Source of the DNA: Candidatus Saccharimonadota bacterium
Lineage (GTDB): Bacteria > Patescibacteriota > Gracilibacteria > UBA4473
Assembly (NCBI GenBank): GCA_963677105.1
Contig: OY781871.1
Span: 600,001 to 632,000, forward strand
DNA: 32,000 nt
Reading direction: 5' to 3'
Both the position numbers and the translations under genes were made by a program. Numbering within the stretch: the stretch's first letter is position 1; each line of letters starts with the position of its first letter. Under the pieces are notes generated by a model. That model did no database searches. It was given only the letters and a program-made list of their open reading frames with translations, and was not told the DNA's origin. Shown here piece by piece: positions 2-28,909 of this stretch.

Positions 2-652
2 CGACCACGTCGCGGAGGAGGAAGAGGAGGGAGAAAGCCAAGAGAAGCGAAAGAATTTGAAGAAGCAATTTTACAAATTGATCGTGTTACTCGTGTGGTA
101 AAAGGAGGGCGACGTCTTCGTTTTCGATTAACAGTAGTTATCGGAGATAAAAAAGGACGAGTTGGATTTGGAATTGGAAAATCTGCCGAGGTTATGACAG
201 CTATTCAAAAAGCTGTTGTACAAGCAAAACGGAACATGATTACTGTTCCAATGAATAAAGGAACGTTGCCACACGCTGCAAATGCACAATTTAAAGCGTC
301 TCGGGTTTTATTATTTCCTGCACCAGAAGGTAAGGGAGTTATTGCTGGAGGAGCCGTTCGTAAAATTTTAGAACTTGCTGGAGTGAGAGATGTTTTATCT
401 AAATCTCATGGTTCACGAAATAAATTAAATGTAGCATGCGCAACATTTAACGCATTACAATCACTTGAGACAGCAAAGAATCCTGGAGCAAAAATTACAA
501 AAGAAGATGTAGCAATGGAAGAAAAGGTTGAAGAGAAAAAAGAACAGACAACAAAAGAAACTCCAAAGAAAGTGGCAGAAACAAAAAATCCTGCCAAAAA
601 ACCAGCAGCGAAAAAACCAGCTGCAAAGAAAACTGATTCAGAGAAAAAATGA
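2..652 (+). CDS. rpsE: 30S ribosomal protein uS5, 5'-truncated by the window edge, with a K/A/P/E-rich C-terminal tail
   Basis: The frame of the listed 95..652 ORF stays open to nt 2 (RPRRGGGRGGRKPREAKEFEEAILQIDRVTRVVKGGRRLRF...), so the gene starts upstream of the window rather than at GTG 95. The core GRVGFGIGKSAEV...GKGVIAGGAVRKILELAGVRD is the uS5 signature. The TGA stop overlaps the rplO ATG (ATGA). Confidence 0.93.
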   Translation, partial: RPRRGGGRGGRKPREAKEFEEAILQIDRVTRVVKGGRRLRFRLTVVIGDKKGRVGFGIGKSAEVMTAIQKAVVQAKRNMITVPMNKGTLPHAANAQFKASRVLLFPAPEGKGVIAGGAVRKILELAGVRDVLSKSHGSRNKLNVACATFNALQSLETAKNPGAKITKEDVAMEEKVEEKKEQTTKETPKKVAETKNPAKKPAAKKPAAKKTDSEKK

Positions 653-1086
653 ATTTATTAAGTAAATTGGCTCCGAAGGTCGCTAAAAAAGCGAAAATGC
701 GAAAAGGTCAGGGAAATGGGACAAAAGGAACATTTGCTGGTCGAGGGAAAAACGGACAAAATTGCCGAGCAGGTGGGGGAGTTCGTCCTGGATTTGAAGG
801 AGGACAAAGTGGACTTCTTATGCGTATGCCAAAATTGCGAGGCTTCAAAAATCCTAATCGAGTTGAAGCACAAGTCGTCAATCTTGATAAGATTGAACTT
901 ACATTCAAAGATGGCGCAGATGTAAATGTAGTGTCTCTGGCCGAAGCAGGATTAATTCGTAAGAATAATGCTAAAATTAAAATTTTGGGAGATGGAGAAA
1001 TTACAAAAAAAATAAATGTAGAAGGAGTGCTTGTGTCAAAAAGTGCGAAAGCAGCTATTGAAAAAGCAGGAGGAACGGTAAAATAA
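649..1086 (+). CDS. rplO: 50S ribosomal protein uL15
   Basis: KGQGNGTKGTFAGRGKNGQ...GGVRPGFEGGQSGLLMRMPKLRGF is the glycine/basic uL15 N-terminal signature. It is translationally coupled to rpsE by the ATGA overlap. Confidence 0.93.
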   Translation: MNLLSKLAPKVAKKAKMRKGQGNGTKGTFAGRGKNGQNCRAGGGVRPGFEGGQSGLLMRMPKLRGFKNPNRVEAQVVNLDKIELTFKDGADVNVVSLAEAGLIRKNNAKIKILGDGEITKKINVEGVLVSKSAKAAIEKAGGTVK

Positions 1087-1226: not shown

Positions 1227-1258
1227 TTATAAAATTTTTCTGACAAACTTTGAAAATC

Positions 1259-2728
1259 ATGAAAACAATTCGTACAGCGCTCACATTTGATGACGTATTA
1301 CTCGTTCCTCAGTATTCTGAAATATTACCGAATCAGGTAGATCCTAGTACGAAGTTTACACGAAATATTGATATAAAAATCCCACTTGTTTCTTCTGCGA
1401 TGGACACAGTGACAGAATCAGACATGGCGATTACAATGGCTCTTTTGGGAGGAATTGGAGTAATTCATAAAAATTGTACGCCAGATGAACAAGCGTCAAT
1501 GGTACGAAAAGTGAAACGTTTTGAAAACGGATTTATTCATGAGCCACTTGTCCTTTCTCCAACACATAAAATTACAGATGTGATTAATATTCGAAAAGAG
1601 AAACACTTCAAATCGATTCCTATAACAGTGGACGGAACATTAGCTACAAAAGTAATTGGAATGGTTTCTCGAAATGATTACCTGGAAAAGAAACATTCAA
1701 CTTGTACGTGTGAAGAACGAATGACACCAATTGAAGATTTACTTACAGCCAAAACTCCGTTAACCCTTTCAAAAGCCAATGATGTATTAGAAGAATCAAA
1801 ACATTCAAAGCTTTTGATTTTAAATAACGATGGGACGCTACATGCGTTGATTACTCGTCGAGATTTGGAGCAAAATGAAATGTTTCCATTAGCGACAAAA
1901 GATTCTCGAAAACGATTACGTGTTGCAGCAGCATGTGGACCAGCTCACAATCGAGACGAACGAGTAAAAAAATTGGTAACGGCAGGAGTTGATGTTTTAG
2001 TTGTAGACACAGCTCATGGACACTCAAAAGGAGTGCTTGATACAGTAAAATATATAAAAGACAATTATCCAGATGTAGATGTTATCGGAGGAAATATCGC
2101 AACAGCAAAAGCAGCAGAAGCACTTATTAAGGCTGGAGTAGATGGAGTAAAAGTAGGAATTGGACCAGGATCAATTTGTACCACTCGTGTTGTCGCTGGA
2201 ATTGGAGTTCCTCAATTATCAGCCATTATGGACGTAGCAGAAGTTTGTAAAAAATCAGGAATTACACTTATTGCAGATGGAGGAGTTCGTTATTCTGGAG
2301 ACGTAGCAAAAGCACTTGCTGCAGGAGCGAGTTCAGTCATGATTGGATCATTACTTGCAGGAACAACACAAGCACCAGGAGAGCTTATTTACTCAGGAGG
2401 AAAAACATATAAATATTATCGAGGAATGGGATCAATGGCAGCAATGACTTGTGGAGGAAAAGAACGATACGCACAAGCAAATGTTGCAAATGACAAACTT
2501 GTTCCAGAGGGAATTGAAGGAAAAGTATTATTCAAGGGAGATGCTTCTGGAGAAATTTTCCAACTGACTGGAGGAGTTCGAAGTTCAATGGGATATACAG
2601 GAGCAGGAACAATTGAAGATTTTCAGAAACTGTCTGAATTTGTTCAAATTACAGCCGCTTCATTAAAAGAATCTCATCCACACGATATTTCTATTCTCAA
2701 AGAAGCACCGAATTATCGAGGACAATAG
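1259..2728 (+). CDS. guaB: IMP dehydrogenase with a CBS-pair insert
   Basis: Diagnostic motifs are [15 protein letters not shown] at the N-terminus, the catalytic loop [11 protein letters not shown], and [18 protein letters not shown] chose ATG 1259; the listed ORF begins at TTG 1250, three codons upstream. Confidence 0.93.
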
Positions 2729-2801: not shown

Positions 2802-5450
2802 TTATGTTGCGATATTTCTTCGTTCTCCGTTTGCCCAAGTTGCAGCTTTTGTTCCTGCAGTTGAGAGATTGAGTACTACAAATTGTGCATCTGGTTGAGT
2901 ATGTGGAACACGGATTACCGCATTTCGATTATTTCGTACGTTTTCCGGTTTTTCCCAACTTTCTGCGATAACACGTCCTTCTTTTTCACGAATTAATACA
3001 ATGTGCGTATCGTTATGGAAGATCATATTTGCGCTAATACACTTTTCGTTTTTCATTTGTGGAGTAGATCGATAGAGCGTTAGATTTTCGAAAACTTCAC
3101 GATTTCCCAAAGAATCAGGAAAGCATAATTCACCATCGGTATTTGTGACATCAGCAACATCTAACTTATTTAAGACCATTCCTGATTCAGGAGCATGTTC
3201 AATTATCATGTCGCCATCTTCATCTTTTTTACGAGAGAGCAGAGTGTTCATCTGATGAGACATATTCGCTGACAGTGCTTTTTCAAATTTAGATTCTCTT
3301 TCAGCCTGAAGGCTTTGTTGCATTCGTTGTTGCATGAGACCATTGAAGTCATGAACAATGATTCCTGCATCAATATCGTCTCGTTCAGGAATAGCATCTA
3401 ATGCAGCTTGTAATTCTCGTCCGATATTTAACATTCCAGCGAATCCTTCAGCGGTTCCCGGAAGATCAAAGTGTCTATTTGTTAAGTCTTGTTTTGCATT
3501 ATCCCAGTCTTGTACTCGTTTAAAAATTTCTGAACGAGCGGCTTCTAGTGCTGCAAAATCCTCTTTGCTAAAATTGAATCCAGCACCGCCACTTGCTCCC
3601 ACCATTTCGCTCAAACGGTCAGCAATGCTTTGTGCTCGAGTTCTTTCTGATTCCAATAATTCATCACTTGGTGGTAAGTTTTTCAGCACTTCATCAACAT
3701 ACACTCTTCGTTGTTCCTGAAGAGAGGCAATAATTTCTTTCATTTTCGTAGAAAGTCCTTTGAAGTCTTGTAATCCTTTTATTAAATCTTGCTCATCTTG
3801 TGGCATTTTTGTAATAATTTCTGACAGGGAACCAGACACGCCATCTTCTCCGAAAAATTCTTCAAAAGTAGACGTAAAAGTAGTCATCGTTTGAAGCTTT
3901 TCATTGATTTCATTTGGATTTTCACTTCGCATAGCATTGTCTATATTTGCAAGCGCGGCGATTGCTCCATGAGCAGCATTTCGAACAATATTTGCATTAT
4001 TTAAAATATAACGTCGTTGAGCAGGAGTTCCATCTTCTGCTTGAGATCCTTGCGCTAATTGTTCTACTTCTCGTGCGTGTGTGTCTTGTATCCACGTGTA
4101 TACTGTTCGTTTAAAATTCATTGAACATCGTGGATCATTCAAAATTTCTTGATTGTTTGCCAAAAATTGAAGCAAAAGCGTCAATCGTTCTGACATCGTG
4201 AGGCCCACTGGAGCGTCTCGAAAAATATCGCGTCTTGTATCGATACCAAGTCGACGAAGGCCAGTCATAAATATCTTTAACACTTCTTTCTCTTCTTTTT
4301 TTTCATCTCCTTCAAATGTTTGTACTCGATAACGTTCCAATATTCGATATAATCCTTCAAAATCAGTATTTTCAAGTGCATTACTTGTTAACGTTTCTCG
4401 TCGATCCATATTTGAAATCAATATTTCTTGATCAAATGTTAATTGCTGAGATCGCTCTAATTCAACAACCTTCTTTGAAAACTTAGATTTAATGGCATCC
4501 AGAATTCGCACTCGATTAGTCGTTCCAAATGCATCATTTAGATTCACAGCTCCTATCCATCGATTCGATAAAAATCCGTCCGGATCTTTAATTACACTTT
4601 GAACAAATCCCCAAAATCGTCCTTCAGCACTAGAATCATTCTTATTTCGCATTCTTTCTTGATACATATCAATAGCGTTTGTAGTGTCCTGTAATTGCTT
4701 CGTTAGTTGCTCTTCAACACGTTTCATATTTGCACAGACTTCTTTTCGTGCATCTTCAAGATTCTTTATAATTCTTTCTGATCGTTTTAAATATCTTTCT
4801 TCTCGTCCAAGACTAATATCTGTAAATTTACGAAATGGTTCACGTGTATTTAAAGCATTTATTCCCAATTCTTTTGCAATATTTACATCGTTTAATATTC
4901 GCTCAAAAAGTTGGTCAATTGCAGGACCTAATAAACAAAACGTGTCCCAAGACGTCTTTTTTATACTTGATTCTTTTCCACTTGAAATAGCGGATAAAGT
5001 TGCTTTTTGAGTATGATTTAATAGTGCAGATTTCACTCCAGTAGAAAGCAAAATAGAATCATCTAACATATTTCCTAGTTGTGGAGCAGCATTTTTAATA
5101 TTTCCAAGAATAGAGCCTTTTGTAAACAATGTTATATTCGCCAAAAGAACAGGATTAATTGCCTGTCTTTCAAATTGTGCACCAAATAAAACTCCCATAG
5201 GGTTTCCTGGAGTTCGTAAATTTCTTTGTCGTTCTTCAGCCAATCCTGTTCTGGTTGCAGAACCACTAATAACTTCATCAACATCATCGGAAACTTGTTC
5301 TGTTTCAAAAGCAACAGAACCAGCTGTTTCGAATGGATCAAAAGAAAATTCTTCATGAGAATTTTGTTCTAAATCAAGTGCTGGTTCAGCTTCCCATACG
5401 TACCGAGAAGAGAGATTTTCTGTCCGAGGGTGTTGCCATAGATTTTTCAT
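2802..5450 (-). CDS. Hypothetical 882-aa protein, mostly alpha-helical, with no signal peptide or TM segment
   Basis: The ORF is long and uninterrupted with native codon usage. I recognise no P-loop, HExxH or other catalytic motif. The composition shifts to beta-type in the last ~120 aa. Confidence 0.8.
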   Translation of the reverse strand: MKNLWQHPRTENLSSRYVWEAEPALDLEQNSHEEFSFDPFETAGSVAFETEQVSDDVDEVISGSATRTGLAEERQRNLRTPGNPMGVLFGAQFERQAINPVLLANITLFTKGSILGNIKNAAPQLGNMLDDSILLSTGVKSALLNHTQKATLSAISSGKESSIKKTSWDTFCLLGPAIDQLFERILNDVNIAKELGINALNTREPFRKFTDISLGREERYLKRSERIIKNLEDARKEVCANMKRVEEQLTKQLQDTTNAIDMYQERMRNKNDSSAEGRFWGFVQSVIKDPDGFLSNRWIGAVNLNDAFGTTNRVRILDAIKSKFSKKVVELERSQQLTFDQEILISNMDRRETLTSNALENTDFEGLYRILERYRVQTFEGDEKKEEKEVLKIFMTGLRRLGIDTRRDIFRDAPVGLTMSERLTLLLQFLANNQEILNDPRCSMNFKRTVYTWIQDTHAREVEQLAQGSQAEDGTPAQRRYILNNANIVRNAAHGAIAALANIDNAMRSENPNEINEKLQTMTTFTSTFEEFFGEDGVSGSLSEIITKMPQDEQDLIKGLQDFKGLSTKMKEIIASLQEQRRVYVDEVLKNLPPSDELLESERTRAQSIADRLSEMVGASGGAGFNFSKEDFAALEAARSEIFKRVQDWDNAKQDLTNRHFDLPGTAEGFAGMLNIGRELQAALDAIPERDDIDAGIIVHDFNGLMQQRMQQSLQAERESKFEKALSANMSHQMNTLLSRKKDEDGDMIIEHAPESGMVLNKLDVADVTNTDGELCFPDSLGNREVFENLTLYRSTPQMKNEKCISANMIFHNDTHIVLIREKEGRVIAESWEKPENVRNNRNAVIRVPHTQPDAQFVVLNLSTAGTKAATWANGERRNIAT

Positions 5451-5486
5451 CTACATCTTAATACAACACTTTTAAACAAAAGTCAA
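5451..5486 (-). promoter_or_regulatory. Internal promoter with leaderless geometry for the 882-aa gene
   Basis: On the minus strand: TTGACT (5486-5481), 17 nt, TATTAA (5463-5458), 7 nt (GATGTAG), then ATG at 5450. The element fills the whole 36-nt gap after the 135-aa gene's stop codon. Confidence 0.6.
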
Positions 5487-5894
5487 TTAAATATCTGATC
5501 GAGCTTGTTCTGCAATAGCTTTTGCTAATTCTTGTTCGTTTGATTCTTCGTCTAGATTCTCTTTTTGTTTTGCTGCACGGAATTCATTACAGAATTTATC
5601 TGCGATTCGCTGCATTTCTTCTTCAGCATTTTTTACATCTTGTTCTTCCATTTTTGGAATATCGTCTTCAAGGGACCGAATCGTTTTATTTACACGATCA
5701 AATTCTACAAGATGACGTTTTTGATTGTCTTCTAAATGTGCCAGTGTTTCATCAATAAATTTTGCTGCTTTTTCATCAATTCCTCCAACTTCAATCACAT
5801 GAGCTATAAAATCTCGTCGTGTGTAAATAGAAATTTCCTCTAGGTTTGTGAACCAATCAAGAAATGTTTCGAATTCAGCTGAAATATTTGTCAT
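5487..5894 (-). CDS. Hypothetical small acidic helical protein (135 aa)
   Basis: The ORF sits between the two giant genes, 11 nt after the 794-aa stop. It is rich in E/D with no TM segment, and I recognise no family. Confidence 0.7.
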   Translation of the reverse strand: MTNISAEFETFLDWFTNLEEISIYTRRDFIAHVIEVGGIDEKAAKFIDETLAHLEDNQKRHLVEFDRVNKTIRSLEDDIPKMEEQDVKNAEEEMQRIADKFCNEFRAAKQKENLDEESNEQELAKAIAEQARSDI

Positions 5895-5905
5895 TTTTAA
5901 TAAAG

Positions 5906-8290
5906 TTACACTCCGATTTTGTAGTTAAGAGCAATTGCGCTATCCCACGCACCTGAAACAGTTGGATCAGGAATTGTGTGACTTCCACTCGTTTTGGAAA
6001 CTTTTGCGTTCTTATACGCAGCTCCATTTTTTGCTATTGGACCGAGAATAGTAATAACTTTTCCAGGATTCGCTCCTGCTGCTTTTTTCTCAAGTATTAC
6101 TCCTTTTTCATTTGATTGAATTACAATAAATTCTTCTGTGTCAGTATTATTTAATTGATCTGGAAATCGTAGACTTGATGCCGCTGTTTTTTTATACGTT
6201 ATTTCTACTTTTGTTCCTTTTGATACGCTTTTCAATTGTTCAAATTGATCATTTTTTTCTAGCTGTTCTACGAATTTTTTATCGAGTTCATCACCAAATG
6301 ATTCAGCACGCATTTTTTGCATAATTCGTTCATCAAGTGTTCCTAGTGATGGATTTATTTCACTTGAAATAGAAAGCGCTTTAGCGGTAAGTGCACTTAA
6401 CTGTCCTTGAATTCGGATAAATTCAGAAGAAAAATCGTGTAAATCACTGTGTTTATTTTTACTTTCGAGATAGCTTTTGTTCGCAAGGTCTCTTTCCGCC
6501 TGCAATCCTTGAATAATTCTTTGGAAAACTTGTGCAGCATATGAGCTCGTTGGAGTTGGCTTTGCCAGTTCAGTATTGAGGCGCGCTGTTGCATCGTCTA
6601 ATACGGTTTTTAAATTTGTTGTAGTTTTATTGTGATCTAGTTTTTCGTGCTTGTCTTTCTTCCACTGGCTAGCAATTTTTACCAGTTTTTCTCGAATAGG
6701 TTCTATTTGTGCAAACCCTTCTTCAAGAGACTTTTTATCTTTTTCAGGGAAATTTTCTAAGGACTGCACTAAATTTTCAAACTTTTGTTTTTGGGTGAAG
6801 ATTTTATTCGACAAATCTATCACCATATTTTGTGTTGCTTCAAAGTCAGAGATCGCGTCTCCAATTTTTCTTTTAGAAAGTTCCTTGAAACAATCAGAAG
6901 CTTCTTTTGTTAGAGATCCAGCATTTCCATCGAATAGTTTTTCAAAATTTTCTACAGCTGATTTATTAGCACTTTCCCATCGGATAATATTTCCTCCTGT
7001 TTGAGAGTCCATGTCATTAATCCATGCAAGCAATGATTGTCGAGTACTTACTTGCAACTTTTTATCGGCATCAATTGTGTGAATTTTTTTCACTAACAAA
7101 ATTAATTTTACTGAATCAGTCAATAAATTCGCTTTATTAATATTCAGTGTTCCTGATGAATAAATATCCTCCAAATTTATGGTGCTATCACTGGCTAATT
7201 CGTTTTCGATTTTTTGCACTAAATCTGAAATAGAGGGAACAGTCGCTCCTTCTGTTAGTAAATCTTTAAATCCAGGTCGAGATTTAATGTTTTCAAATTC
7301 AAAGTCCGTAGTATCTTTCAAAATATCTTGCTGTTCTCGTGCAGACGCAATCATTTCATCTTGCTGCATCTGTTTTGCTCGTGATATTCCCACAATTCCC
7401 AGATCTTTTTTCACAAAATCAAGTCCTTGTGCGGCCTCAAGAAAATTAATTTTTTCCTGCGGATCAGTAATTCCCCAATGAACACTGAGATCAACACTTG
7501 CAAGATTTCCAGAGTCTTTTCGCAAAGCGGTAATTAAATCGGATTGAAGTGCGGCTTTCTCGTCAGGATCTGCAGCAGCAGCTAGTGTACGACGAATGTG
7601 AGCTTGCGTTGGTGCAATTCGTTTTCCAACACGACTCTCTAGTCGTTCAATATTTTTATTTATCCGATCAAATCGTTTTGTCATTGATTTCTCGAGCGCA
7701 CTATTAAACCATTCTTGTCGTTTTTCAGTTCGAACCAAATGATATGCACCAAGCGTTCCAATAGTGAGAGCTTTGTGTCCAGCTTTTGACCACCATCCTC
7801 GATTTTTAATAGTTTCAGCTTGTCGACGAACCATTTCTTCTCGTTGTGCATTTGCCTCTTCCATTGCACTCACAGTGAATCCTTTCAGAGTTTCTAATGT
7901 TTGTAGAGAATGAATTCCTCCTGCACGAATATTTTGGATTTGTGCTAAAACATCGTTTGCCGTGTACGAAAGAATTTGACTTTCCAAAATGGCAGCAGAA
8001 GAACTTCTTGAACTTGATTGATATTCTGCAGCAGATCTATCAACAACATCAAAAACTCGTCGAGTAACCAATCGTGACCATCCCCACGGATCGATGCTTC
8101 TTGAGCTGAGGTTTTCATTAAAAAATTCATCTAATCCACCGGTAGAAGCATTTACAGAAATCTCTTTAATTCGTCCTTCGGCTATTTCTGATTGCATTTG
8201 CAAGCGTTCCTCTCCGTGTTTCTCGGAAAGATGGAGATCATCAGGGCTAATTGCCTGTTCTGAGTGATCATAACTTTTTAAATCAGTCAT
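5906..8290 (-). CDS. Hypothetical 794-aa protein, mostly alpha-helical, with no signal peptide or TM segment
   Basis: The ORF is long with native codon usage and no recognisable catalytic motif. The last ~100 aa are beta-type and resemble the C-terminus of the 882-aa protein. Confidence 0.8.
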   Translation of the reverse strand: MTDLKSYDHSEQAISPDDLHLSEKHGEERLQMQSEIAEGRIKEISVNASTGGLDEFFNENLSSRSIDPWGWSRLVTRRVFDVVDRSAAEYQSSSRSSSAAILESQILSYTANDVLAQIQNIRAGGIHSLQTLETLKGFTVSAMEEANAQREEMVRRQAETIKNRGWWSKAGHKALTIGTLGAYHLVRTEKRQEWFNSALEKSMTKRFDRINKNIERLESRVGKRIAPTQAHIRRTLAAAADPDEKAALQSDLITALRKDSGNLASVDLSVHWGITDPQEKINFLEAAQGLDFVKKDLGIVGISRAKQMQQDEMIASAREQQDILKDTTDFEFENIKSRPGFKDLLTEGATVPSISDLVQKIENELASDSTINLEDIYSSGTLNINKANLLTDSVKLILLVKKIHTIDADKKLQVSTRQSLLAWINDMDSQTGGNIIRWESANKSAVENFEKLFDGNAGSLTKEASDCFKELSKRKIGDAISDFEATQNMVIDLSNKIFTQKQKFENLVQSLENFPEKDKKSLEEGFAQIEPIREKLVKIASQWKKDKHEKLDHNKTTTNLKTVLDDATARLNTELAKPTPTSSYAAQVFQRIIQGLQAERDLANKSYLESKNKHSDLHDFSSEFIRIQGQLSALTAKALSISSEINPSLGTLDERIMQKMRAESFGDELDKKFVEQLEKNDQFEQLKSVSKGTKVEITYKKTAASSLRFPDQLNNTDTEEFIVIQSNEKGVILEKKAAGANPGKVITILGPIAKNGAAYKNAKVSKTSGSHTIPDPTVSGAWDSAIALNYKIGV

Positions 8291-8311
8291 TTTATTTAAA
8301 TAAATCAGGTA

Positions 8312-8340
8312 ATTTTACCCTATTTCATCAAATAAATCAA
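8312..8340 (-). promoter_or_regulatory. Promoter of the 794-aa/135-aa(/882-aa) cluster
   Basis: On the minus strand: TTGATT (8340-8335), 17 nt, TAAAAT (8317-8312). An AT-rich 21-nt leader without a Shine-Dalgarno site precedes ATG 8290. Confidence 0.6.
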
Positions 8341-8465: not shown

Positions 8466-9971
8466 TTAGCGAATACGATCTATGATGGTGTATTCTTTGT
8501 CAGAAATCTCATTCTTAGAAACGTCAGTAAGTCCTTTTAGCTGAATAGAAAATCGTTCATTTGGTTGTACGGAATTTTGCCAAAATCCAATCAGTGCCGT
8601 TTGTTCCCCTTTCCACAAAAGCAATTCTTCAAAAACAGGATTATCAGTGATTTCCGCATTTTCGAAATCTTTATCACGAAGTGTTATTTTTAATTTACTT
8701 GTAACCAAGACTGGTTCAGAAAAATGTAATTCAGCAACGCTAAAACGTGCACTTGAACGAGCAAAATTATCAGCCCAACGATTTCGTGCAGATTCTGGAA
8801 CTTGATCAATGTTTAACCATTCGTGAAGCGTGACAAATGGTTTTACTGAATCTTCAACAATTGCCCAATGAAATTCTTTTCTTTCAGTGCGTAGTTTTCC
8901 ATTCCATGTTCCAATATTTTCATGCGTCTTGAAATTAGAAGATTCAAACGCTTGTTGTCCAAAAAGAGAAAGTCTCCAATCGGTATTCCACGTTTGTCCA
9001 CGAGGAGCGAATACACCAAGTGAATTTACAATTCCTTTTACTTCAAAAGTCCATTCATGCCACCACTTTTCTCCCGGAGCAAGGGTTAATGATAAAAATT
9101 CATTTGGAGAATTCCAAGCATCAGGCCATCTCATTTCGATTCCACCTTTCCATGTTTGAGAAAGTGGCTCATCGGCTTGTCCCAAATGTTCGAGTCGTGC
9201 CTTTACTTTAATTTCCCAATTATTTGGCGATGTTTCTCGTGCAGAAATATCAATATTTCGTTCCAATGAACGAGATGATTTTCCTCCACCAAGATTCCAT
9301 TCAATTGCCGCAATATCACTGGAAAGAGGTTTTAGGTTTGGCGAAACGTTCGGAACAAAAAGCTCTCCTGATTGCACAGCTTTTCCAATTTCTTTCGTAA
9401 GCGATGGCCATGTCCATGGTTTTATGAGAATTTTTAGAATCATTTTTTTCCCAAAATGAGAAAGCGGAGATTTTCTTTCTGCAAGTGCTTGTTCATCGTG
9501 ACGATCTGTGTTTGCGACAGATCGAGTCATTTCTGCAAAAAAAGTAGGATCTTTAATAAGTTTTTCTACCGTTTCAGTATTTATTAAAATAATATGAGAA
9601 TGAGAAATTCCTGCCATATTTGCGGCACCATGAAAAGAATCTGCACATTTCTTTAAATCAGGAGAAGTTCCGAGATCCCAAAATTTTACGTCTTGCGCAA
9701 CCATTGTAAGCGGTGCTTGAGCTGTTCCAAAACTTTTATCAGCAAGTGTATATACATTTTTTAATTCCATTTTCAATGGAAGAATTCGAACTTCTCCAAT
9801 CGCTGTTACAAATCCTCCACAAGGACGAGCTTCTGCTTCGTTCATCAAAAGGACAAGATGGGTTTGCGTAAGGAATTTCAGAGTGAATGCCCAGCGAATT
9901 GGCCACACACAAACACACAAAAATAGGACAAGTAATCCAAGCCAGAACCATGTTTTCTTGAGGAATTTCAT
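8466..9971 (-). CDS. DUF4012-like membrane-anchored protein with a Trp-rich C-terminal domain
   Basis: An N-terminal TM segment (WFWLGLLVLFLCVCVW) is followed by LVLLMNEAEARPCGGFVTAIGEV. This matches my memory of the DUF4012 signature (L.LFQNNAE.R.TGGF.G). I chose ATG 9971 (MKFLKKTWFW...); the listed ORF starts at TTG 10016. Confidence 0.55.
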   Translation of the reverse strand: MKFLKKTWFWLGLLVLFLCVCVWPIRWAFTLKFLTQTHLVLLMNEAEARPCGGFVTAIGEVRILPLKMELKNVYTLADKSFGTAQAPLTMVAQDVKFWDLGTSPDLKKCADSFHGAANMAGISHSHIILINTETVEKLIKDPTFFAEMTRSVANTDRHDEQALAERKSPLSHFGKKMILKILIKPWTWPSLTKEIGKAVQSGELFVPNVSPNLKPLSSDIAAIEWNLGGGKSSRSLERNIDISARETSPNNWEIKVKARLEHLGQADEPLSQTWKGGIEMRWPDAWNSPNEFLSLTLAPGEKWWHEWTFEVKGIVNSLGVFAPRGQTWNTDWRLSLFGQQAFESSNFKTHENIGTWNGKLRTERKEFHWAIVEDSVKPFVTLHEWLNIDQVPESARNRWADNFARSSARFSVAELHFSEPVLVTSKLKITLRDKDFENAEITDNPVFEELLLWKGEQTALIGFWQNSVQPNERFSIQLKGLTDVSKNEISDKEYTIIDRIR

Positions 9972-10048
9972 CAGATGAAGTGTGTCAAAAATTGTAGTAT
10001 TTTGCAACTTATTCAAAGCTCATGAGTATTTGTTTTGATATATATTAC

Positions 10049-10077
10049 TTGACAATAATAAAAAAACATCCTAAAGT
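10049..10077 (+). promoter_or_regulatory. Near-consensus promoter of the 237-aa cassette
   Basis: TTGACA (10049-10054), 17 nt, TAAAGT (10072-10077). This implies a leader of about 145 nt that contains the hairpin CTCGTGAT (10146-10153) / ATCGCGAG (10176-10183). Confidence 0.5.
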
Positions 10078-10227
10078 GTTTTCGTAAATTTTATGCAAAT
10101 TTTGTCATAAAGTTTCGATCTTTTACATGTTAGAGAAAAAATTGCCTCGTGATTTTGTGCGTATGTGCGCATAGTATCGCGAGACAATTGATACTGATTG
10201 TCCATAAAAAAAATCAGGAGGTTCCAA

Positions 10228-10911
10228 ATGGAACAACAAACAAAAAGGGAAGTTGCACAAAAACTACAGAAGTTGATGAGAGAGATTCATGACCCAATGA
10301 CTTCGATTGGAAAACAAAGGGCTTTGAGGAGACAGATAAATATGCTTGCAGAGGCAGGCATTAGTGGAGATTTAGAGATATTGATTCAGAAAAAAACAAG
10401 AAACACGCATAAATTGCGTCAGGAGTTGCAGGCATGTCGCGTTAAGAGAATTCAAGCATTTTTAGCAGAAGACTTACAGCAGCTTTCGACACTGAGAAAC
10501 CTGAAATTGAAGATTACGCAAATTCTCGGTCAACCAAAATTGGAAAAATTATTAAGGGCTGAACTGGGAAGAGTTTTAGATCAAGTTTTAATTCATGTAT
10601 CACAAATTGAGAAAGAAAAGAAGACTACTAGGAAAAAAAGAATGGTTGTTCTTCCTCAGCAACAGCAACAGAAAGATCAAACCAATGCTGATTTAAAATG
10701 GGCTTATAGAACAAGGGGGGATGCTGAAGCCTTGTTTTTGCTTTCGCCTAAAACACAAGAACACTTATTGATAGAGGACGATTATGTTCTTTATAACCGT
10801 GCAAATACGAATTCAAATGGAGGGAAACGGCCTTTATTGGATTCGGAGATACTTGAAATTAATCAGAAAATGGAAAAGTATTGTGAAGATTGTGATAAAC
10901 TAATTCTCTAA
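10228..10911 (+). CDS. Hypothetical coiled-coil protein (227 aa from ATG 10228), foreign-looking
   Basis: A perfect AGGAGG site (10216-10221) lies 6 nt before ATG 10228; the listed TTG 10198 start has no such site. By hand count 14 of 18 Arg codons are AGA/AGG, against 0 of 20 in guaB. It contains a Q5 run. Confidence 0.75.
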   Translation: MEQQTKREVAQKLQKLMREIHDPMTSIGKQRALRRQINMLAEAGISGDLEILIQKKTRNTHKLRQELQACRVKRIQAFLAEDLQQLSTLRNLKLKITQILGQPKLEKLLRAELGRVLDQVLIHVSQIEKEKKTTRKKRMVVLPQQQQQKDQTNADLKWAYRTRGDAEALFLLSPKTQEHLLIEDDYVLYNRANTNSNGGKRPLLDSEILEINQKMEKYCEDCDKLIL

Positions 10912-10927
10912 CAGTCGTAGAAGAACT

Positions 10928-10969
10928 CCCTTTCTTGTTCCTTGTGAATGAGAAAGGGTTTCTTTTTTT
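10928..10969 (+). terminator. Rho-independent terminator of the 237-aa cassette
   Basis: CCCTTTCT (10928-10935) pairs with AGAAAGGG (10951-10958) over a 15-nt loop, followed by TTTCTTTTTTT. Confidence 0.65.
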
Positions 10970-11023
10970 GTATTTCTAAATATATTCACGTACACTTTCG
11001 ATACATTTCTAAAACATAAACAA

Positions 11024-11785
11024 ATGGAAAAAATTCTTCCAATTGCGATTCCGGTCGGAATAATCCTTCTTTCAAGTCTTCGGCAGATTAATCAGTATGA
11101 ACGCGGAGTGATGTTTACGATGGGGCGTTTTACTGGACTAAAAAATGCAGGATGGCGTCTCGTTATTCCTATTTTTCAGAAAATGGTAAAAGTTGATACG
11201 CGAACGAAAGCGGTTGATGTACCAGACCAAGAAGCTATTACAAAAGATAATATTCCCGTACGAATTAATGCGGTTATCTATTACCGTGTTTCTGATGCAG
11301 GAAAGGCGATTCTTGAAGTTGAAAATTTCTTTTGGGCGATGAGCCAAATGGCGCAAACAACAATGCGAAATGCTGTTGGAGAAGTAACGCTTGATGAGCT
11401 ATTGCAAAACCGAGATAAGATTTCGAATAAAATTCAAATTGTAATTGATGCAGCATCTGATCCATGGGGAATTAAAGTTGAGTCTGTTGAGTTAAAAGAT
11501 GTGATTATTCCGGAAGATTTAAAACGAACTATTTCAAAAGAGGCTGAAGCAGAAAGGGAAAAAAGAGCTGTTATTATTAAAGCAGAAGGGGATAAAATTG
11601 CGGCAGTAAATTTGGCAGCAGCAGCAAAAATGCTGGCTACTGAACCAGGAGCAATGCACTTACGAACACTTCAGACAGTAAATGATCTTTCTTCTGATCA
11701 GTCAAATACAACGATTTGGATGCTGCCAGTTGAAATGATGGAAGCAGTGAAAGGATTTGGGCAAGTTATGGGACAGAAGAAATAA
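11024..11785 (+). CDS. SPFH/band-7 (stomatin/slipin-like) membrane protein
   Basis: An N-terminal TM segment is followed by INQYERGVMFTMGRF...VDTRTKAVDVPDQEAITKDNIPVRINAVIYYRV and the coiled EAEAEREKRAVIIKAEGD segment. These are typical of the SPFH family. Confidence 0.88.
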   Translation: MEKILPIAIPVGIILLSSLRQINQYERGVMFTMGRFTGLKNAGWRLVIPIFQKMVKVDTRTKAVDVPDQEAITKDNIPVRINAVIYYRVSDAGKAILEVENFFWAMSQMAQTTMRNAVGEVTLDELLQNRDKISNKIQIVIDAASDPWGIKVESVELKDVIIPEDLKRTISKEAEAEREKRAVIIKAEGDKIAAVNLAAAAKMLATEPGAMHLRTLQTVNDLSSDQSNTTIWMLPVEMMEAVKGFGQVMGQKK

Positions 11786-11865
11786 ATCTTATCCGTAATT
11801 TGACATATACAAAAAACAATGTAAACTAGAATTAGTTTAAGAATAGTAATTTAAAATTACTTAAG

Positions 11866-11912
11866 AAAGTTGCCGATTTAGTCCTCTGTAAGGGATTTGA
11901 TCGCAGCTTTTT
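11866..11912 (+). terminator. Possible terminator after the SPFH gene
   Basis: The outer stem AAGTTGC (11866-11872) pairs with GCAGCTT (11902-11908), giving 7 bp with one G.U. A T6 run follows, but the interior is large and loosely structured. Confidence 0.3.
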
Positions 11913-11992
11913 TAAATGTTTCAAATTTTCTTAGAAATCCTCTTTCAAGATAAAATTTCTTGAAAATGAAATTGTGCTACACTTCTTGAGAC

Positions 11993-14446
11993 ATGAACCA
12001 AACAATTTTAATTGCGGTTGGAATTGGCGCAGGAGTGCTTCTGGGAATGTTTTTTCTTATACGATGGCTGCGCAGACAAAATGATTTTCAACGATCGCTA
12101 GATTTTGTATTTCTTCAAGTACTTATCCCGAAAAAGGAATCAAAAGAAGACCATGAAAGAGAGCGTGATCAGACGAGTGATATGCATAAAGTAGTATCTA
12201 TTGCAGATCATTTTTTTCAATCATTATACGGAATTCATTCTAAAGACATTAACCGGATCTGGAAAAATCAAGATTTCCTTTCTCTTGAATATGTAGCTAA
12301 GAATGGAGAAATCGGACTTTATATTGGTTGTCCACGAGAACTACAGGAAGTCATTGAAAAACAAATTACGAGTTTTTATCCAGAAGCCGTTATCGAGCGA
12401 ACAGAATCGCCAAAAACCTTTCATGAAAAAACATATCAAGTAACGGGATTTTTAACCGGAACTAAAAAATATTTATACCCAATTAAAACATTTAAAAAAT
12501 TCGAATCAGCAGATCCAATCAACAATATATTGAATTCACTTTCCAATGCGTCAGACGATCATGGAAATTCTGCGGCTGTTCAAATTATGATTCGTCCAGC
12601 AAAAGATGTGTGGCAAAAGTCAGCGCGAAAACTATCGAAACAATTAAGTGCTGGGAAAAATCATGCAGCATGGTGGAATCCAATTACATTACTTGGAAAA
12701 ATGTTTGGTTTGTTGGTCAGTGGAGTTGATGATTCTTCAGATGGAGCCGAAGGAGAAAAAGACACGGAATCACAACAAACAACGCAAGCAATAGATGAAA
12801 AAGCAGAACGACACGGATTTGAGACAATTATCCGATGTATAACGAGTTCTCCTCAAAAAAGAATAGCACAAGTGAATATGACTTCGTTATTGAACTCTTT
12901 TAGTCAATATGGAGCACCAGCACTCAATTCTTTATTTCAGCGAAAATGGCACAGTCGTCGCGATTTAGTTGCAAATTTCTTGCTTCGATCTTCTCGTCGT
13001 TCGTGGACAACACGAAACCCACTTTTACTTTCAACAGAAGAATTAGCATCCCTCTTTCATTTTCCACATACGAAATACAATAATATTCCAGGACTGAAAT
13101 GGCAGAATTTTAAAATTGCACCCGTTCCGAAAAATATTCCTCAAAAGGGATTGTATCTCGGAGACAATGTGTATCGTGGTGTGACTCGGCCAGTGTTCTT
13201 GTCGCCAGAAGATCGATTCCGACATTTCTACGTAATTGGACAAACAGGAACTGGTAAATCATCTATTTTTCAAACAATGATTCGTCAGGATTTTCAAGAA
13301 AACAGAGGAGTGTGTGTAATTGATCCACATGGTTCTTTGATTGAATCATTATTACCATTTGTTCCCAAAGAACGAGTAGATGATGTGATAATTTTTGATC
13401 CTTCTGATTTAGAGCGACCGATGGGACTGAATTTGTTGGAAGCAGAGACGGATGAAGAGCGCGATATGGTAGCATTAGATGCTATGAATATTATGATCAA
13501 AATGTTCGACGAAGAAACATTTGGACCACGAATTCAGGATTATTTTCGAAATGGAGTTTTAACATTAATGGCGGATCCTGCGGGAGGAGCTTTGACAGAT
13601 ATTGTTCGCTTGTTTACAGATGACGCGTTTCAGCGAGCGAAAGTTCAACATGTAAAGAATCCGGTGGTAAAAAGCTTCTGGACGAAACAAATGGCGCAAA
13701 CAGGACAACGTGAAAAGCAAGAGATGATACCGTATTTTGCGGCGAAATTTGGAGCGTTTGTGACTAACGCAATGATGCGAAATATTATTGGCCAAACCAA
13801 ATCAGCGTTTGATTTTGCTAAAGTTATGGATGAAGGAAAAATTCTTCTTATGAATCTTTCGAAAGGAATGACCGGAGAAATTAATTCGAAATTGCTCGGA
13901 CTTATTATCGTTTCAAAATTGCAAATGGCAGCGTTGCGACGGCAAAAAAAATTAACGGCGGGACAAAAACCAACAGACTTCTTCCTCTTTATCGATGAGT
14001 TCCAAAACTACGTAACCGATTCGATTGAATCAATTCTCTCTGAAGCACGAAAATACCGATTATCATTAAATATTGCGCATCAATATTTAGGACAAATTGA
14101 TACATCCGGACAAAAGAAGGGATTAAATTTGAAAGAAGCGGTTTTTGGAAATGTGGGAACGATGATGTGTTACAAAATTGGAGCGCAAGATTCAGAAGAA
14201 ATGGCAAAGGAAATGGCACCCGTTTTCTCCGATCAAGATTTATTAAATATTGATGCGTTCAAAGCAGCGATCAAATTAGCAGTTGATGGACAGCCGAGTC
14301 GACCGTTTTCTTTAAACGTTCAGAAGCCGTGGTTTGAGAAAGGAAACGAAAAAATGCCAGACGCATTGAAACAAATTTCTCGATTAACACACGCTCGAAG
14401 TCGGAAGTTTGTGGAGAAAGAGATTTTTACAAGACTTGATGTGTAG
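11993..14446 (+). CDS. TraD/VirD4-like (type IV coupling protein family) membrane ATPase with a long non-ATPase N-terminal domain
   Basis: There is an N-terminal TM segment (IAVGIGAGVLLGMFFLI). The ATPase motifs are Walker A VIGQTGTGKSS, CVIDPHGS, Walker B FLFIDEFQNY and NIAHQYLGQ. Confidence 0.75.
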   Translation: MNQTILIAVGIGAGVLLGMFFLIRWLRRQNDFQRSLDFVFLQVLIPKKESKEDHERERDQTSDMHKVVSIADHFFQSLYGIHSKDINRIWKNQDFLSLEYVAKNGEIGLYIGCPRELQEVIEKQITSFYPEAVIERTESPKTFHEKTYQVTGFLTGTKKYLYPIKTFKKFESADPINNILNSLSNASDDHGNSAAVQIMIRPAKDVWQKSARKLSKQLSAGKNHAAWWNPITLLGKMFGLLVSGVDDSSDGAEGEKDTESQQTTQAIDEKAERHGFETIIRCITSSPQKRIAQVNMTSLLNSFSQYGAPALNSLFQRKWHSRRDLVANFLLRSSRRSWTTRNPLLLSTEELASLFHFPHTKYNNIPGLKWQNFKIAPVPKNIPQKGLYLGDNVYRGVTRPVFLSPEDRFRHFYVIGQTGTGKSSIFQTMIRQDFQENRGVCVIDPHGSLIESLLPFVPKERVDDVIIFDPSDLERPMGLNLLEAETDEERDMVALDAMNIMIKMFDEETFGPRIQDYFRNGVLTLMADPAGGALTDIVRLFTDDAFQRAKVQHVKNPVVKSFWTKQMAQTGQREKQEMIPYFAAKFGAFVTNAMMRNIIGQTKSAFDFAKVMDEGKILLMNLSKGMTGEINSKLLGLIIVSKLQMAALRRQKKLTAGQKPTDFFLFIDEFQNYVTDSIESILSEARKYRLSLNIAHQYLGQIDTSGQKKGLNLKEAVFGNVGTMMCYKIGAQDSEEMAKEMAPVFSDQDLLNIDAFKAAIKLAVDGQPSRPFSLNVQKPWFEKGNEKMPDALKQISRLTHARSRKFVEKEIFTRLDV

Positions 14447-14516: not shown

Positions 14517-15689
14517 ATGCCTACAAAAAATGTCGTTTCTGTAACTCCAGAGGTACTCGTGTGGGCACGAGAAACTGCACATTTATCTATTGTAGGGGCA
14601 TCAAAGAATATTATTCCTCATGAAAAATTATTAAAAATAGAACGGGGAGAAGACTTTCCGACACTTATTCAACTTAGAAATTTAGCTCATAGGTATGATC
14701 GTTCTCTTTCGACTTTAATGGGGAATAAAATCCCGGAAGATGATTACAAAAAGATTCCTTTTTTTAGAAAAGAGAATAAAACGGAGTACGATTCACCATT
14801 AGCATTATTTATTCGTGATATTCAAAAAAAACAAGATTGGGCAAGAAATTATCTGCTAGATGAAGGGATTCCTGCATTGGAATTTATTGGATCAGTTAAA
14901 ATTAAAGATAATCACAAACAGGTTGCCTCCAAAATAAAGGAGCGGTTGGGGCTGCCGTCATTTACGGAATATGGGAGAAGAGAAAGCTATTTTCACGACT
15001 TAAGAACATCCCTAGAAAAAAATAATATATTTGTTTCAGTTACAGGCAGTGATCAGTCTAGTAGAGCTATTTCTCCTGAGCAGGCTCAGGGATTTGCAAT
15101 CCCCGATTCTGTTGCTCCATTTTTATTCGTAAATACTCGAAGTACAATAAATTCAAAAATTTTCACGCTTATTCATGAAGTCGTACATCTTTTTTTGGAT
15201 GAAATGGGAATATCAGAAGACCCTATAAAGTTTCGAAAACCAGATTGTAATGAGGATGAGATAGAAAACTTTTGTAATTTGGTCGCAGCAGAAATCTTGA
15301 TGCCTGAAGATGAATTTAGAGAGCAGTGGGATAAAACAAAAGGGACAATAGAAGAAAGAATTGAGAAAGTAGGACAAAATTTCTTAGTTAGTAGTCTTTC
15401 TGTGTGCGTAAAGGCTTGGCATTTGGGCATAATTTCTGGTCATGATTTTTCAGTTATATTTCCTCACATAAAAGAAAAGATAAATGAGTGGTTACGCATG
15501 AGGGATGAAAAAAGAAAAGAGGCAAATGGTGGTGGAGATTATTATTTAAATATGAGATCTCAAAATGGAATATTGCTGTCTCAATTAGCATTTTATGCAT
15601 ACAAGGGAGGAAATGTAATGGCAACAGAAATTTCAAAAGTATTAACGGTAAAGGTGAGTAATTTTGATAATTATTTTTCGAAAATATAA
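14517..15689 (+). CDS. XRE-type HTH fused to an ImmA/IrrE (COG2856/DUF955) zinc metallopeptidase
   Basis: The N-terminus is HTH-like (LIQLRNLAHRYDRSLSTLMG). The HExxH motif lies in FTLIHEVVHLFLDE. The stop overlaps the next start (TAATG). About 60% of Arg codons are AGR. Confidence 0.8.
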   Translation: MPTKNVVSVTPEVLVWARETAHLSIVGASKNIIPHEKLLKIERGEDFPTLIQLRNLAHRYDRSLSTLMGNKIPEDDYKKIPFFRKENKTEYDSPLALFIRDIQKKQDWARNYLLDEGIPALEFIGSVKIKDNHKQVASKIKERLGLPSFTEYGRRESYFHDLRTSLEKNNIFVSVTGSDQSSRAISPEQAQGFAIPDSVAPFLFVNTRSTINSKIFTLIHEVVHLFLDEMGISEDPIKFRKPDCNEDEIENFCNLVAAEILMPEDEFREQWDKTKGTIEERIEKVGQNFLVSSLSVCVKAWHLGIISGHDFSVIFPHIKEKINEWLRMRDEKRKEANGGGDYYLNMRSQNGILLSQLAFYAYKGGNVMATEISKVLTVKVSNFDNYFSKI

Positions 15690-16246
15690 TGAAATACATA
15701 TTAGATACGAACGTTTATATTGCAGCGTTTCGTGGGTATTATAATCCAGAAATTTGTTCTACATATTGGGAGGTATTACGAGAACTCGGAGAAAAAGAAT
15801 CTATAAAATCCCCAAAGGAAGTAAAAGATGAGATAGAGAGAATAGATGACGACTTATCAGGTTGGGCTAAGAATAAAAATCCTTGTTTTCTGTCAGATGA
15901 TTTAACCGGGATAATGGTTTTTTTTATGAAGGTAAGGGCTTCTTATGATGTTATAAAACAGAATGCAATTTCTCACTGGACGACAGAATTCGCTAAAAAA
16001 GGGCAAAAATATCATTTAAGAGAGGAGCCCATTTCGGATGAGGATATATTTGTCGTTGCAACAGCACTATTTTATCGAAAACATTTTCCTGATCAGGAAG
16101 TCGTGGTCGTAACAAAAGAGATACTAAAAAACAATCCATATAAACCAGTAAGAATCCCTCATTTATGTGATGCAGTTAAGGTTCGATGGATTAATGATTT
16201 TGAGTTCATTAAAGAAATTGGCATTACTCTTGAAGCAAAACTTTGA
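15689..16246 (+). CDS. DUF4411 family protein (PIN-like nuclease fold)
   Basis: The N-terminus MKYILDTNVYIAAFRGYYNPEICSTYWEVL...DDDLSGWAK matches my memory of the DUF4411 pattern (yllDaNvfI.A...YY..icp.FW). It overlaps the ImmA gene by 1 nt. Confidence 0.8.
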   Translation: MKYILDTNVYIAAFRGYYNPEICSTYWEVLRELGEKESIKSPKEVKDEIERIDDDLSGWAKNKNPCFLSDDLTGIMVFFMKVRASYDVIKQNAISHWTTEFAKKGQKYHLREEPISDEDIFVVATALFYRKHFPDQEVVVVTKEILKNNPYKPVRIPHLCDAVKVRWINDFEFIKEIGITLEAKL

Positions 16247-19190: not shown

Positions 19191-19598
19191 ATGAAAATAA
19201 AAAAATTTATAGCTCCATTATTTGGATTACTTCTTGCTGTTGGAGTGTTTACTCTTGGAGGAGATGTTTCAGCACAACTTATTAGTGATTTGGATAATCC
19301 AGAAAATATCGCATTAGCGACAGGAGGAGAAGGATCATTCAGAGTTATTTTACGAACAATCATTAATTTCGTACTCTACTTCCTTGGATTGATTGCTACA
19401 ATTATGGTGATCTATGGGGGATTTCTTTATATTACTTCTCAAGGAGAGGATACAGAGAAAGCAAAAAAAGTACTTTTGTATGCAGCAATTGGTATTGTTA
19501 TCATTTTGATCTCATTCGCACTGGTAAATACATTGTTGGGAGCAGCAGCAAAGAATGGAAGTGAGTCTACAATACAAAGTAGCGGACAGTCCTTTTAG
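19191..19598 (+). CDS. TrbC/VirB2-like 'T4SS pilin' family small membrane protein
   Basis: It has a signal peptide (MKIKKFIAPLFGLLLAVGVFTLGGDVSA). A two-TM hairpin follows with a charged loop: IATIMVIYGGFLYITSQGEDTEKAKKVLLYAAIGIVIILISFALV. Confidence 0.7.
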   Translation: MKIKKFIAPLFGLLLAVGVFTLGGDVSAQLISDLDNPENIALATGGEGSFRVILRTIINFVLYFLGLIATIMVIYGGFLYITSQGEDTEKAKKVLLYAAIGIVIILISFALVNTLLGAAAKNGSESTIQSSGQSF

Positions 19599-24734: not shown

Positions 24735-25033
24735 TTTTTCCTCCTATGGAAAAATTTCTTGTATCGACGTTTACTGCTCAAGAGTCGAGTAATGATTTCC
24801 ACCAAAACTTTTAGTGATGAATCTAACTAAAGTATTTATACTCAAATATATTTATTCTTTTCCCTTTATTAAAAAAGAAAAGAAAATGGATTGTTGTTAA
24901 AACGATCTGTGAAAGAACGAACCTTTTCACTATGAAATATTGAAAGCCAATATTGTCATAACAGAAAAATGTTGTATTTATTTTAATACAAAATAAAAAA
25001 AAGTCAAGTAATTTTTGTTGTTTTGTTTTTACT

Positions 25034-28811: not shown

Positions 28812-28818
28812 TCCAGAC

Positions 28819-28847
28819 ATTATACATAAAAAAGTCTTTTTCTTCAA
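28819..28847 (-). promoter_or_regulatory. Strong promoter with leaderless geometry for the pilin-module operon
   Basis: On the minus strand: TTGAAG (28847-28842), 17 nt, TG-extended TATAAT (28824-28819), 7 nt (GTCTGGA), then ATG 28811. Confidence 0.7.
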
Positions 28848-28909
28848 ATAATTTTGACAAAAGGGACGGAGCAATTAAACTCTCGTCGGTTTGATCTTTT
28901 GAAACACAG

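Follow-up and report, generated by a model that had tools for sequence, protein, structure and literature searches.

The 32,000-nt window analysed here (positions 600,001 to 632,000 of contig OY781871.1, assembly GCA_963677105.1, from a Patescibacteriota genome of the class Gracilibacteria) contains a run of three co-oriented genes on its minus strand, which we call A, B and C; coordinates are those of the window unless a related locus is named. Gene A (5906..8290) comes first and encodes a 794-aa helical 'giant' that ends in a small β domain, gene B (5487..5894) encodes a 135-aa acidic helical protein, and gene C (2802..5450) encodes a second giant of 882 aa. These boundaries, taken from the list of open reading frames (ORFs), agree with an earlier model-made reading of the letters alone (hereafter the sequence-only reading), which had described three co-oriented genes of 794, 135 and 882 aa. 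The gaps between genes measure 11 nt (A/B) and 36 nt (B/C), and the three most likely form one operon, with C convergent with the gene for IMPDH, itself downstream of those for ribosomal proteins S5 and L15. Upstream of A lies a gap of 175 nt, where a consensus scan found a promoter-like site, TTGATT-17-TAAAAT (8312..8340, minus strand), plausible in position and putative in function. This is one of two promoters proposed by the sequence-only reading, recovered at 9/12 matches, whereas the other, at 5486-5458, failed the scan; promoter-like sites in the region were fewer than in its shuffles (11 vs 17.5).

Composition and orphan status of the three proteins

Hydropathy and motif scans of A, B and C found no transmembrane-grade hydrophobic segment (maximum 19-residue Kyte-Doolittle values of 0.98-1.27), no signal-like segment, and neither a P-loop ([AG]xxxxGK[ST]) nor an HExxH motif, in line with what had been claimed for the giants. 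Protein B is very acidic, as had been noticed from its letters, with an isoelectric point (pI) of 4.5 and a net charge of -16, while A and C range from acidic to neutral (pI 5.2-6.2), with no nucleic-acid-binding motif. No catalytic-type residue is kept across the family, and most of the nearly invariant columns hold hydrophobic or structural residues. The earlier impression of native CGN arginine codons also held: CGA and CGT dominate in the trio as in the remaining window, and GC content at third codon positions (GC3) is 0.22, vs 0.24 for the rest of the window. Genetic code 25 was excluded because TGA serves as a stop codon and the ORFs are intact, so the standard code applies, in agreement with the use of the standard code by the GTDB class Gracilibacteria (PMC11393006).

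Profile hidden Markov model (HMM) searches at curated thresholds returned no match for A in Pfam, NCBIfam, PHROG or PADLOC, while the best matches of C (Fic_N, 16.6 bits, cut-off 26.7) and B (PerC, 19.1 bits, cut-off 22.6) lay below threshold. A credible Pfam domain was found in 0/35 members of the A family and 0/13 of the C family. Searches of PDB sequences gave no match for the single proteins and nothing below E=0.01 for the family profiles, including those of B and of the C-terminal module of A. Scans of viral contigs in IMG/VR returned no relative, no viral, mobile-element or defence signature was seen in IMG/VR, PHROGs or PADLOC, and we found no description of the A/B/C family in the literature. 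Two assignments for B were considered and rejected. One was a PerC-like regulator: B and two close orthologs reach 15-19 bits over the same region, below the cut-off of 22.6, the match is not seen in distant B proteins, and it is probably noise from helical composition. The other, a fragment or paralog of the giants, did not hold either.

The family is small. Of 1.84 billion cluster representatives, an exhaustive HMMER search with the A profile recovered 33, each at E<=1e-10 and some with an identity as low as 17%; close homologs of A number 9 and homologs of C number 12, a second search seeded with the C alignment added no further members, and a metagenome scan yielded two loci only. Where family members are named, they are labelled 'hypothetical protein [Candidatus Gracilibacteria bacterium]'. 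The trio forms an operon specific to Patescibacteria of the 'Candidatus Gracilibacteria' type, new and uncharacterised at the level of protein families, with no known family or fold assignable. The orphan status and the 'lineage-owned' character suggested by the sequence-only reading were both upheld, and neither profile nor structure searches returned a confident match to a characterised family that would refute the former.

Full-length relationship between the two giants

The relationship between A and C became visible only after the A profile had gained depth from the exhaustive search. Pairwise BLASTP was not significant and hhalign with shallow profiles gave E=0.016, while hhalign with a 35-sequence A profile aligned the two over 628 collinear columns at a probability of 98.9% (E=3.1e-17, score 149.7). 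The alignment joins residues 49-716 of A (6143..8146, minus strand) to residues 83-783 of C (3102..5204, minus strand), and it stops exactly at the RFPDQL/FPDSL motif. Control alignments with reversed profiles (scores of 24-26), block-shuffled profiles (23-38) and off-diagonal self-comparisons (18-26) scored 5-6 times lower, and the similarity is therefore not one of helical composition.

Cross-matches in HMMER bridge the two families. The A-like protein P0053 scores 71 bits with the C profile and 68 bits with the A1 profile, P0048, P0049 and P0051 are likewise intermediate, and the A4 profile matches a C protein at 3e-15. To judge from these profiles, A and C are distant, anciently diverged full-length paralogs that belong to one protein family. 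The sequence-only reading had instead pictured the two giants as linked through a shared C-terminal recognition module and otherwise unrelated, a picture that gives way to collinear paralogy along the whole length.

Conserved C-terminal module of A

The C-terminal module of A (residues 655-794; 5909..6328, minus strand) is the best-conserved stretch of the whole family, with a nearly invariant pattern, ..EKKFL..LEKNDQFE.LK..FPxQL..β hairpin..KNA..NxKI, that has no PDB or Pfam match when searched alone. Within it lie an invariant 18-residue peptide, DKKFVEQLEKNDQFEQLK (6230..6283, minus strand), and the RFPDQL motif, of which the FPDQL part is at 6152..6166 (minus strand). The counterpart in C is a nearly invariant FPDSL motif (3108..3122, minus strand) within the β region of the protein (residues 740-833; 2952..3233, minus strand), and FPDxL is kept in both families.

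An HMM-HMM comparison of the tails alone, by which the sequence-only reading had proposed to judge its shared module, did not come out in favour of that module. With the tails taken as A 655-794 and C 735-882, or A 705-794 and C 774-882, hhalign reached E=0.14 when the profiles were shallow and, once they had been deepened, E=0.006 at a probability of 6%, and all that aligned was the FPDxL motif and a KNA/RNA..LN pattern. The alignment of FPDxL by eye thus stands, while a separate homologous unit does not, because the tails are not significant on their own. The alignments indicate that FPDxL is the end of the whole-length relationship between A and C, and C appears in its structure model to carry an additional β hairpin beyond it.

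Beneath the invariant peptide DKKFVEQLEKNDQFEQLK synonymous sites change freely, a sign that the constraint acts at the level of the protein. An RNA or DNA element under the peptide was rejected on the same variation, and the constraint is most simply read as that of a binding surface.

Gene content and order in related lineages

A second giant is present in 10 lineages, including that of the window, and 3 lineages have one giant only. The order A-B-C is found in the window, in the close relatives L001-L005 and L007/8, and in the distant loci L014/15 and L020/21. In L010 the contig stops within the third gene of the trio, and in L013 A-B has an adjacent but inverted C. The loci L011/12, L016/17 and L018/19 carry a giant and B only. 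In every locus read, B lies directly downstream of a giant, with B-profile E-values of 1e-10 to 3e-30 in the distant loci, and the conserved core of the system is a giant plus B. The co-conservation that the sequence-only reading had asked about is thus present, with the same gene order in all close relatives and several distant ones, and its small companion of the giants behaves as would fit a dedicated partner.

In the close relatives (L001-L005, L007/8) the trio sits in the arrangement SecY-Map-DprA-p143-p290-A-B-C, convergent with IMPDH-L15-S5. In the window the place of this upstream block is taken by a protein of 516 aa that matches DUF4012 below threshold, with no DprA, p143 or p290 nearby; since the upstream block differs, the conserved unit is A-B-C itself. 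In L016/17 the order DprA-p142-giant-B is convergent with IMPDH-L15-S5, at the same chromosomal spot as the trio of the window, and SecY lies upstream of DprA in L016. A single giant with B at this spot implies that the second giant was either duplicated at, or lost from, the locus. A rough neighbour-joining tree separates three clades (C, A and single-giant), with rooting and order of events unsettled.

The flanks of related loci are housekeeping genes. The sequence-only reading had linked the trio to its DUF4012-like neighbour and to a coupling-protein-like ATPase 3.7 kb away. Both are present in the window, the former as a match below the Pfam cut-off, but neither adjoins the trio in any related locus and the link found no support. 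As these neighbours are not conserved, the idea that the giants are cargo of a type IV secretion system (T4SS) gains no support. Genes for the type IV coupling protein (T4CP)-like ATPase and for pilins are found in the window only, and the loci of 13 related lineages have other neighbours.

Vertical inheritance of the trio is favoured by its housekeeping flanks, by the position at IMPDH-L15-S5 that it has in common even with a single-giant lineage, by its native codons, and by the negative searches of IMG/VR, PHROGs and PADLOC.

Two further arrangements were seen among the relatives. The giant-B pair lies just upstream of SecA, as giant-B-x-SecA, in two single-giant lineages (L011/L012 12479..16272, in L011/12; L018 2611..6294, in L018/19), and downstream of SecY-DprA elsewhere (L016 5782..12903). 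We regard these two separate Sec neighbourhoods as a lead, not a result. In L020 another orphan protein, of 1072 aa (9219..12437) and with no relation to the three, comes after the trio, and the block as a whole is inserted between genes for V/A-type ATPase subunits.

Selection on the three genes

Between L001 and L002, the ratio of non-synonymous to synonymous substitution rates (dN/dS) comes to 0.23 in A, 0.11 in B and 0.09 in C, against 0.03 for IMPDH, 0.08 for L15 and 0.16 for S5 among the flanking genes. Together with the ORFs, their full-length homologs and the invariant peptide kept over changing synonymous sites, ratios of this size indicate that A, B and C are real genes under purifying selection. 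The linker of A that precedes the C-terminal module (6300..6660, residues ~545-650) is hypervariable, with a dN/dS of 0.65 and many indels. In two lineages (L004 6987..9887; L007 2677..5583) this linker holds an extra coiled-coil insertion of ~150 residues, giving A proteins of 966-968 aa.

Structure models of the giants

AlphaFold2 (AF2) models of A and C were built on shallow alignments. Both show ~20-30 helices of 4-60 residues each, with loops between them and a short β region at the end. In A, helices span residues 16-688 and strands 721-749 (mean predicted local distance difference test, pLDDT, 59; predicted template modelling score, pTM, 0.31). In C, helices span 51-738 and β strands 740-833, with a four-strand sheet at 788-833 (pLDDT 68.6, pTM 0.39). 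The switch from a helical body to a β tail, anticipated from composition, is reproduced in these models, which are all-α to ~690 in A and ~738 in C. Foldseek searches against the PDB (A and C models) and BFVD (C model) returned nothing at E<=1e-3. Internal repeats in A or C were looked for and rejected, as none was detectable and off-diagonal self-alignments scored 18-26.

A putative helical scaffold and its rivals

We favour, at a probability of roughly 0.45, a reading in which the trio encodes a non-enzymatic cytoplasmic helical scaffold that became heteromeric through duplication, with B as an obligate partner. In the conserved core the giant is an ~800-residue, non-enzymatic, signal-less all-α protein with a small terminal β domain, and B is the acidic helical protein of ~135-140 residues encoded directly downstream of it. 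A and C would be equivalent subunits, forming a homomeric scaffold where there is one giant and a heteromeric one after duplication. Duplicated self-assembling proteins usually turn heteromeric. B would bind the giant or giants as an obligate stoichiometric partner, an assembly factor or a chaperone, and the nearly invariant C-terminal module of A may provide the main interaction surface. Such a scaffold might support the membrane, the envelope or division, or form an interface with protein export.

Several observations weigh against the scaffold. The trio diverges much faster than its surroundings, with identities of 45-62% for A, 45-71% for B and 46-54% for C where IMPDH keeps 77-90%; the genes thus look constrained yet fast-evolving, and fast divergence would likewise suit proteins exposed to a host or partner organism. 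There is no obvious correlation between the pairwise divergences of A and those of C, and the family sequences are too few for an analysis of covariation between A, B and C. The modest confidence of the AF2 models (pTM 0.31 and 0.39) leaves the overall shape unfixed, and no structural neighbour of A or C in the Foldseek searches favours a cytoskeletal or scaffold role.

The main rival, which we consider doubtful, holds that the giants are exported proteins for interaction with a host or prey, either effectors or translocator-like proteins, that leave by a non-Sec route such as the T4SS-like machine of Patescibacteria, with B serving them as chaperone or adaptor for secretion; this is in essence the idea of the sequence-only reading. 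In its size, its charge and its strict place beside the giant, B is typical of a dedicated chaperone, and proteins with T4SS-pilin domains and a T4CP-like ATPase are encoded in the same window. No T4SS gene is kept as a neighbour in any related locus, however, and T4CP homologues are abundant and scattered across Patescibacteria, with no known substrates (PMC12102498). The evolutionary evidence divides in a similar way: the trio evolves far faster than the flanking core genes and A has its hypervariable stretch at a dN/dS of 0.65, but the locus is single-copy and syntenic between housekeeping flanks, and its overall dN/dS is 0.09-0.23. ClyA-family α-pore-forming toxins appear among the top, non-significant Foldseek neighbours of A, although E-values are at least 0.07 and TM scores ~0.1-0.2. 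The giants also lack a recognisable charged C-terminal signal, and their conserved C-terminus would, from the models, rather resemble a folded β domain.

We think it improbable that the giant-B pair instead assists protein export or translation as a lineage-specific housekeeping factor, such as a Sec-associated scaffold or a chaperone in place of a factor that these reduced genomes lack. This would account for the two Sec neighbourhoods, SecY-(Map)-DprA-p143-...-giant-B in the relatives of the window and L016/17 and giant-B-x-SecA in L011/12 and L018/19, for a locus that adjoins a ribosomal-protein operon, and for a dN/dS in C at the low level of ribosomal proteins. In the window, L013, L014 and L020, however, the locus has no adjoining Sec gene, and the SecY linkage may merely mirror the ribosomal superoperon. 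Family-library and profile searches showed no similarity of the trio to SecB, Syd, trigger factor or any other export factor, and the family is limited to a very narrow clade.

A link of the pair to DNA uptake or recombination seems highly improbable. It is suggested by DprA, p143 (a small Ada-Zn-like protein with a weak Ada_Zn_binding match) and a basic protein of ~284-294 aa, which precede the giant in L001-L005, L007 and L017, the basic protein being missing from L017. Against it, the DprA block is found neither in the window nor in L011, L013, L014, L018 or L020, and the giants combine a pI of 5.2-6.2 with the lack of any nucleic-acid-binding motif.

That the trio is what is left of a mobile element, of a phage (tape measure with chaperone) or of an anti-phage defence system is close to refuted: the nearest BFVD entries to C are tape-measure or minor tail proteins (E=7e-3) and the pairing of a long helical gene with a small acidic neighbour recalls a tape measure and its chaperone, but there is no PHROG or PADLOC match, no relative in IMG/VR and no phage or integrase gene nearby, codon usage is native, and the chromosomal position is kept across genomes.

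A bolder reading, unlikely in our estimation, would make the giant and B the core of an unrecognised Gracilibacteria-specific machine, either a new type of helical scaffold for the cytoskeleton or envelope or an apparatus tied to export; the export version is hinted at because SecY and SecA neighbourhoods recur. If true, such a machine would serve the episymbiotic or predatory lifestyle of ultra-small cells and would be without homolog or structural analog among characterised systems. The trio takes up 5.5 kb, ~0.6% of the 962-kb contig, in a type of genome of ~1 Mb. A family that is costly, conserved in its clade and undetected by any sequence or fold library is a promising candidate for lineage-defining biology, be it cell architecture, host contact or export. 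The paralogy of the giants predicts a transition from homomer to heteromer and marks the invariant C-terminal module as a candidate surface. Orphan families and operons are common in candidate phyla, and the trio is best described as a well-characterised unknown, not as a demonstrated new system.

Other genes in the window

The stretch that encodes S5, L15 and IMPDH (95..1086 and 1250..2728) has S5 overlapping L15 with no L30 gene between them. A missing L30 is a reported trait of ribosomes of the candidate phyla radiation. L15 is followed by IMPDH, not SecY, and this end of the spc operon is rearranged, since the SecY-Map-DprA block of the relatives lies inverted beyond the trio.

On the other side, next to the trio, lies the 516-aa DUF4012-like protein, a weak match below the Pfam cut-off. 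Divergent from its gene is one for a 237-aa helical orphan rich in Q, K, E and R (10198..10911), with no match in any family library. The coupling-protein-like ATPase (11993..14446, 817 aa, 3.7 kb from the trio) has TrwB_AAD_bind, TraG-D_C and HerA/DUF87 matches and a PADLOC 'mad8' match, and it is isolated, without a neighbouring VirB4. Next, a gene for an IrrE/M78-peptidase-like protein (390 aa) abuts a DUF4411/PIN-domain gene (185 aa), with a start and a stop that share one base (14517..16246); with capP- and RmrA-like PADLOC matches, the two look like a toxin-antitoxin or defence-type pair.

T4SS_pilin (PF18895) domains occur in three genes (19191..19598, 26133..27671 and 27672..28874), of which the two long ones (512 and 400 aa) are adjacent and have two matched stretches each. 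A 567-aa leucine-rich-repeat protein (23031..24734) ends in a Por_Secre_tail/CHU_C sorting domain of type IX secretion, unexpected for a Patescibacterium. The kilobase of highest AT content in the window (24001..25000, GC 0.30) is next to its gene, which makes horizontal acquisition possible.

Comparison with known systems

Four kinds of known system resemble the trio in part, and a fifth, the coiled-coil rods, bears on the shape of the giants. The ClyA-family α-pore-forming toxins (MakA, XaxA/YaxA, AhlB/SmhB) are likewise long helical bundles with paralogous components within one operon, and they rank high, though without significance, in the Foldseek list for the A model (E 0.1-0.8, TM 0.07-0.22). 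They measure 320-400 aa, carry a hydrophobic head or β-tongue and in several cases have export signals, whereas A and C measure 800-900 aa, have no hydrophobic or membrane-insertion segment and are encoded among housekeeping genes. With neither a significant fold match nor a hydrophobic head, A was rejected as a ClyA-family toxin.

The operons of MukF-MukE-MukB and of Wadjet-type condensins have the same gene order of large, small acidic and large, and MukBEF and Smc5/6 appear low down the Foldseek list. A and C lack a Walker A/B head and are paralogs of each other, whereas kleisin and SMC are not. B has no match to MukE/KITE models and A and C none to SMC or AAA families in Pfam, and the trio was rejected as an SMC/MukB-kleisin-KITE operon on the lack of an ATPase head.

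Intermediate-filament-like cytoskeletal proteins such as crescentin, FilP and Scy form a long uninterrupted heptad/hendecad coiled-coil rod. The AF2 models of the giants show loop-separated helices and not one rod, but at pTM values of 0.31-0.39 that leave the packing unsettled. The BAR/F-BAR and BAR-PH membrane scaffolds and the spectrin-repeat rods are elongated helical bundles, BAR-PH also ending in a small β domain. Entries of the BAR and spectrin types recur among the weak Foldseek and PDB-profile matches, none reaching E<0.01, and the likeness is one of general helical content, with no verifiable common fold and no internal repeat. Finally, a phage tape-measure protein with its small acidic chaperone resembles the trio as a very long α-helical protein beside a small acidic helper, and the best BFVD neighbours of the C model are tape-measure or minor tail proteins (best E=7e-3, TM ~0.1, precisely 0.09). 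Unlike that pair, the trio has no PHROG match, tail genes or viral contig around it, and it is instead chromosomal, vertically inherited and duplicated.

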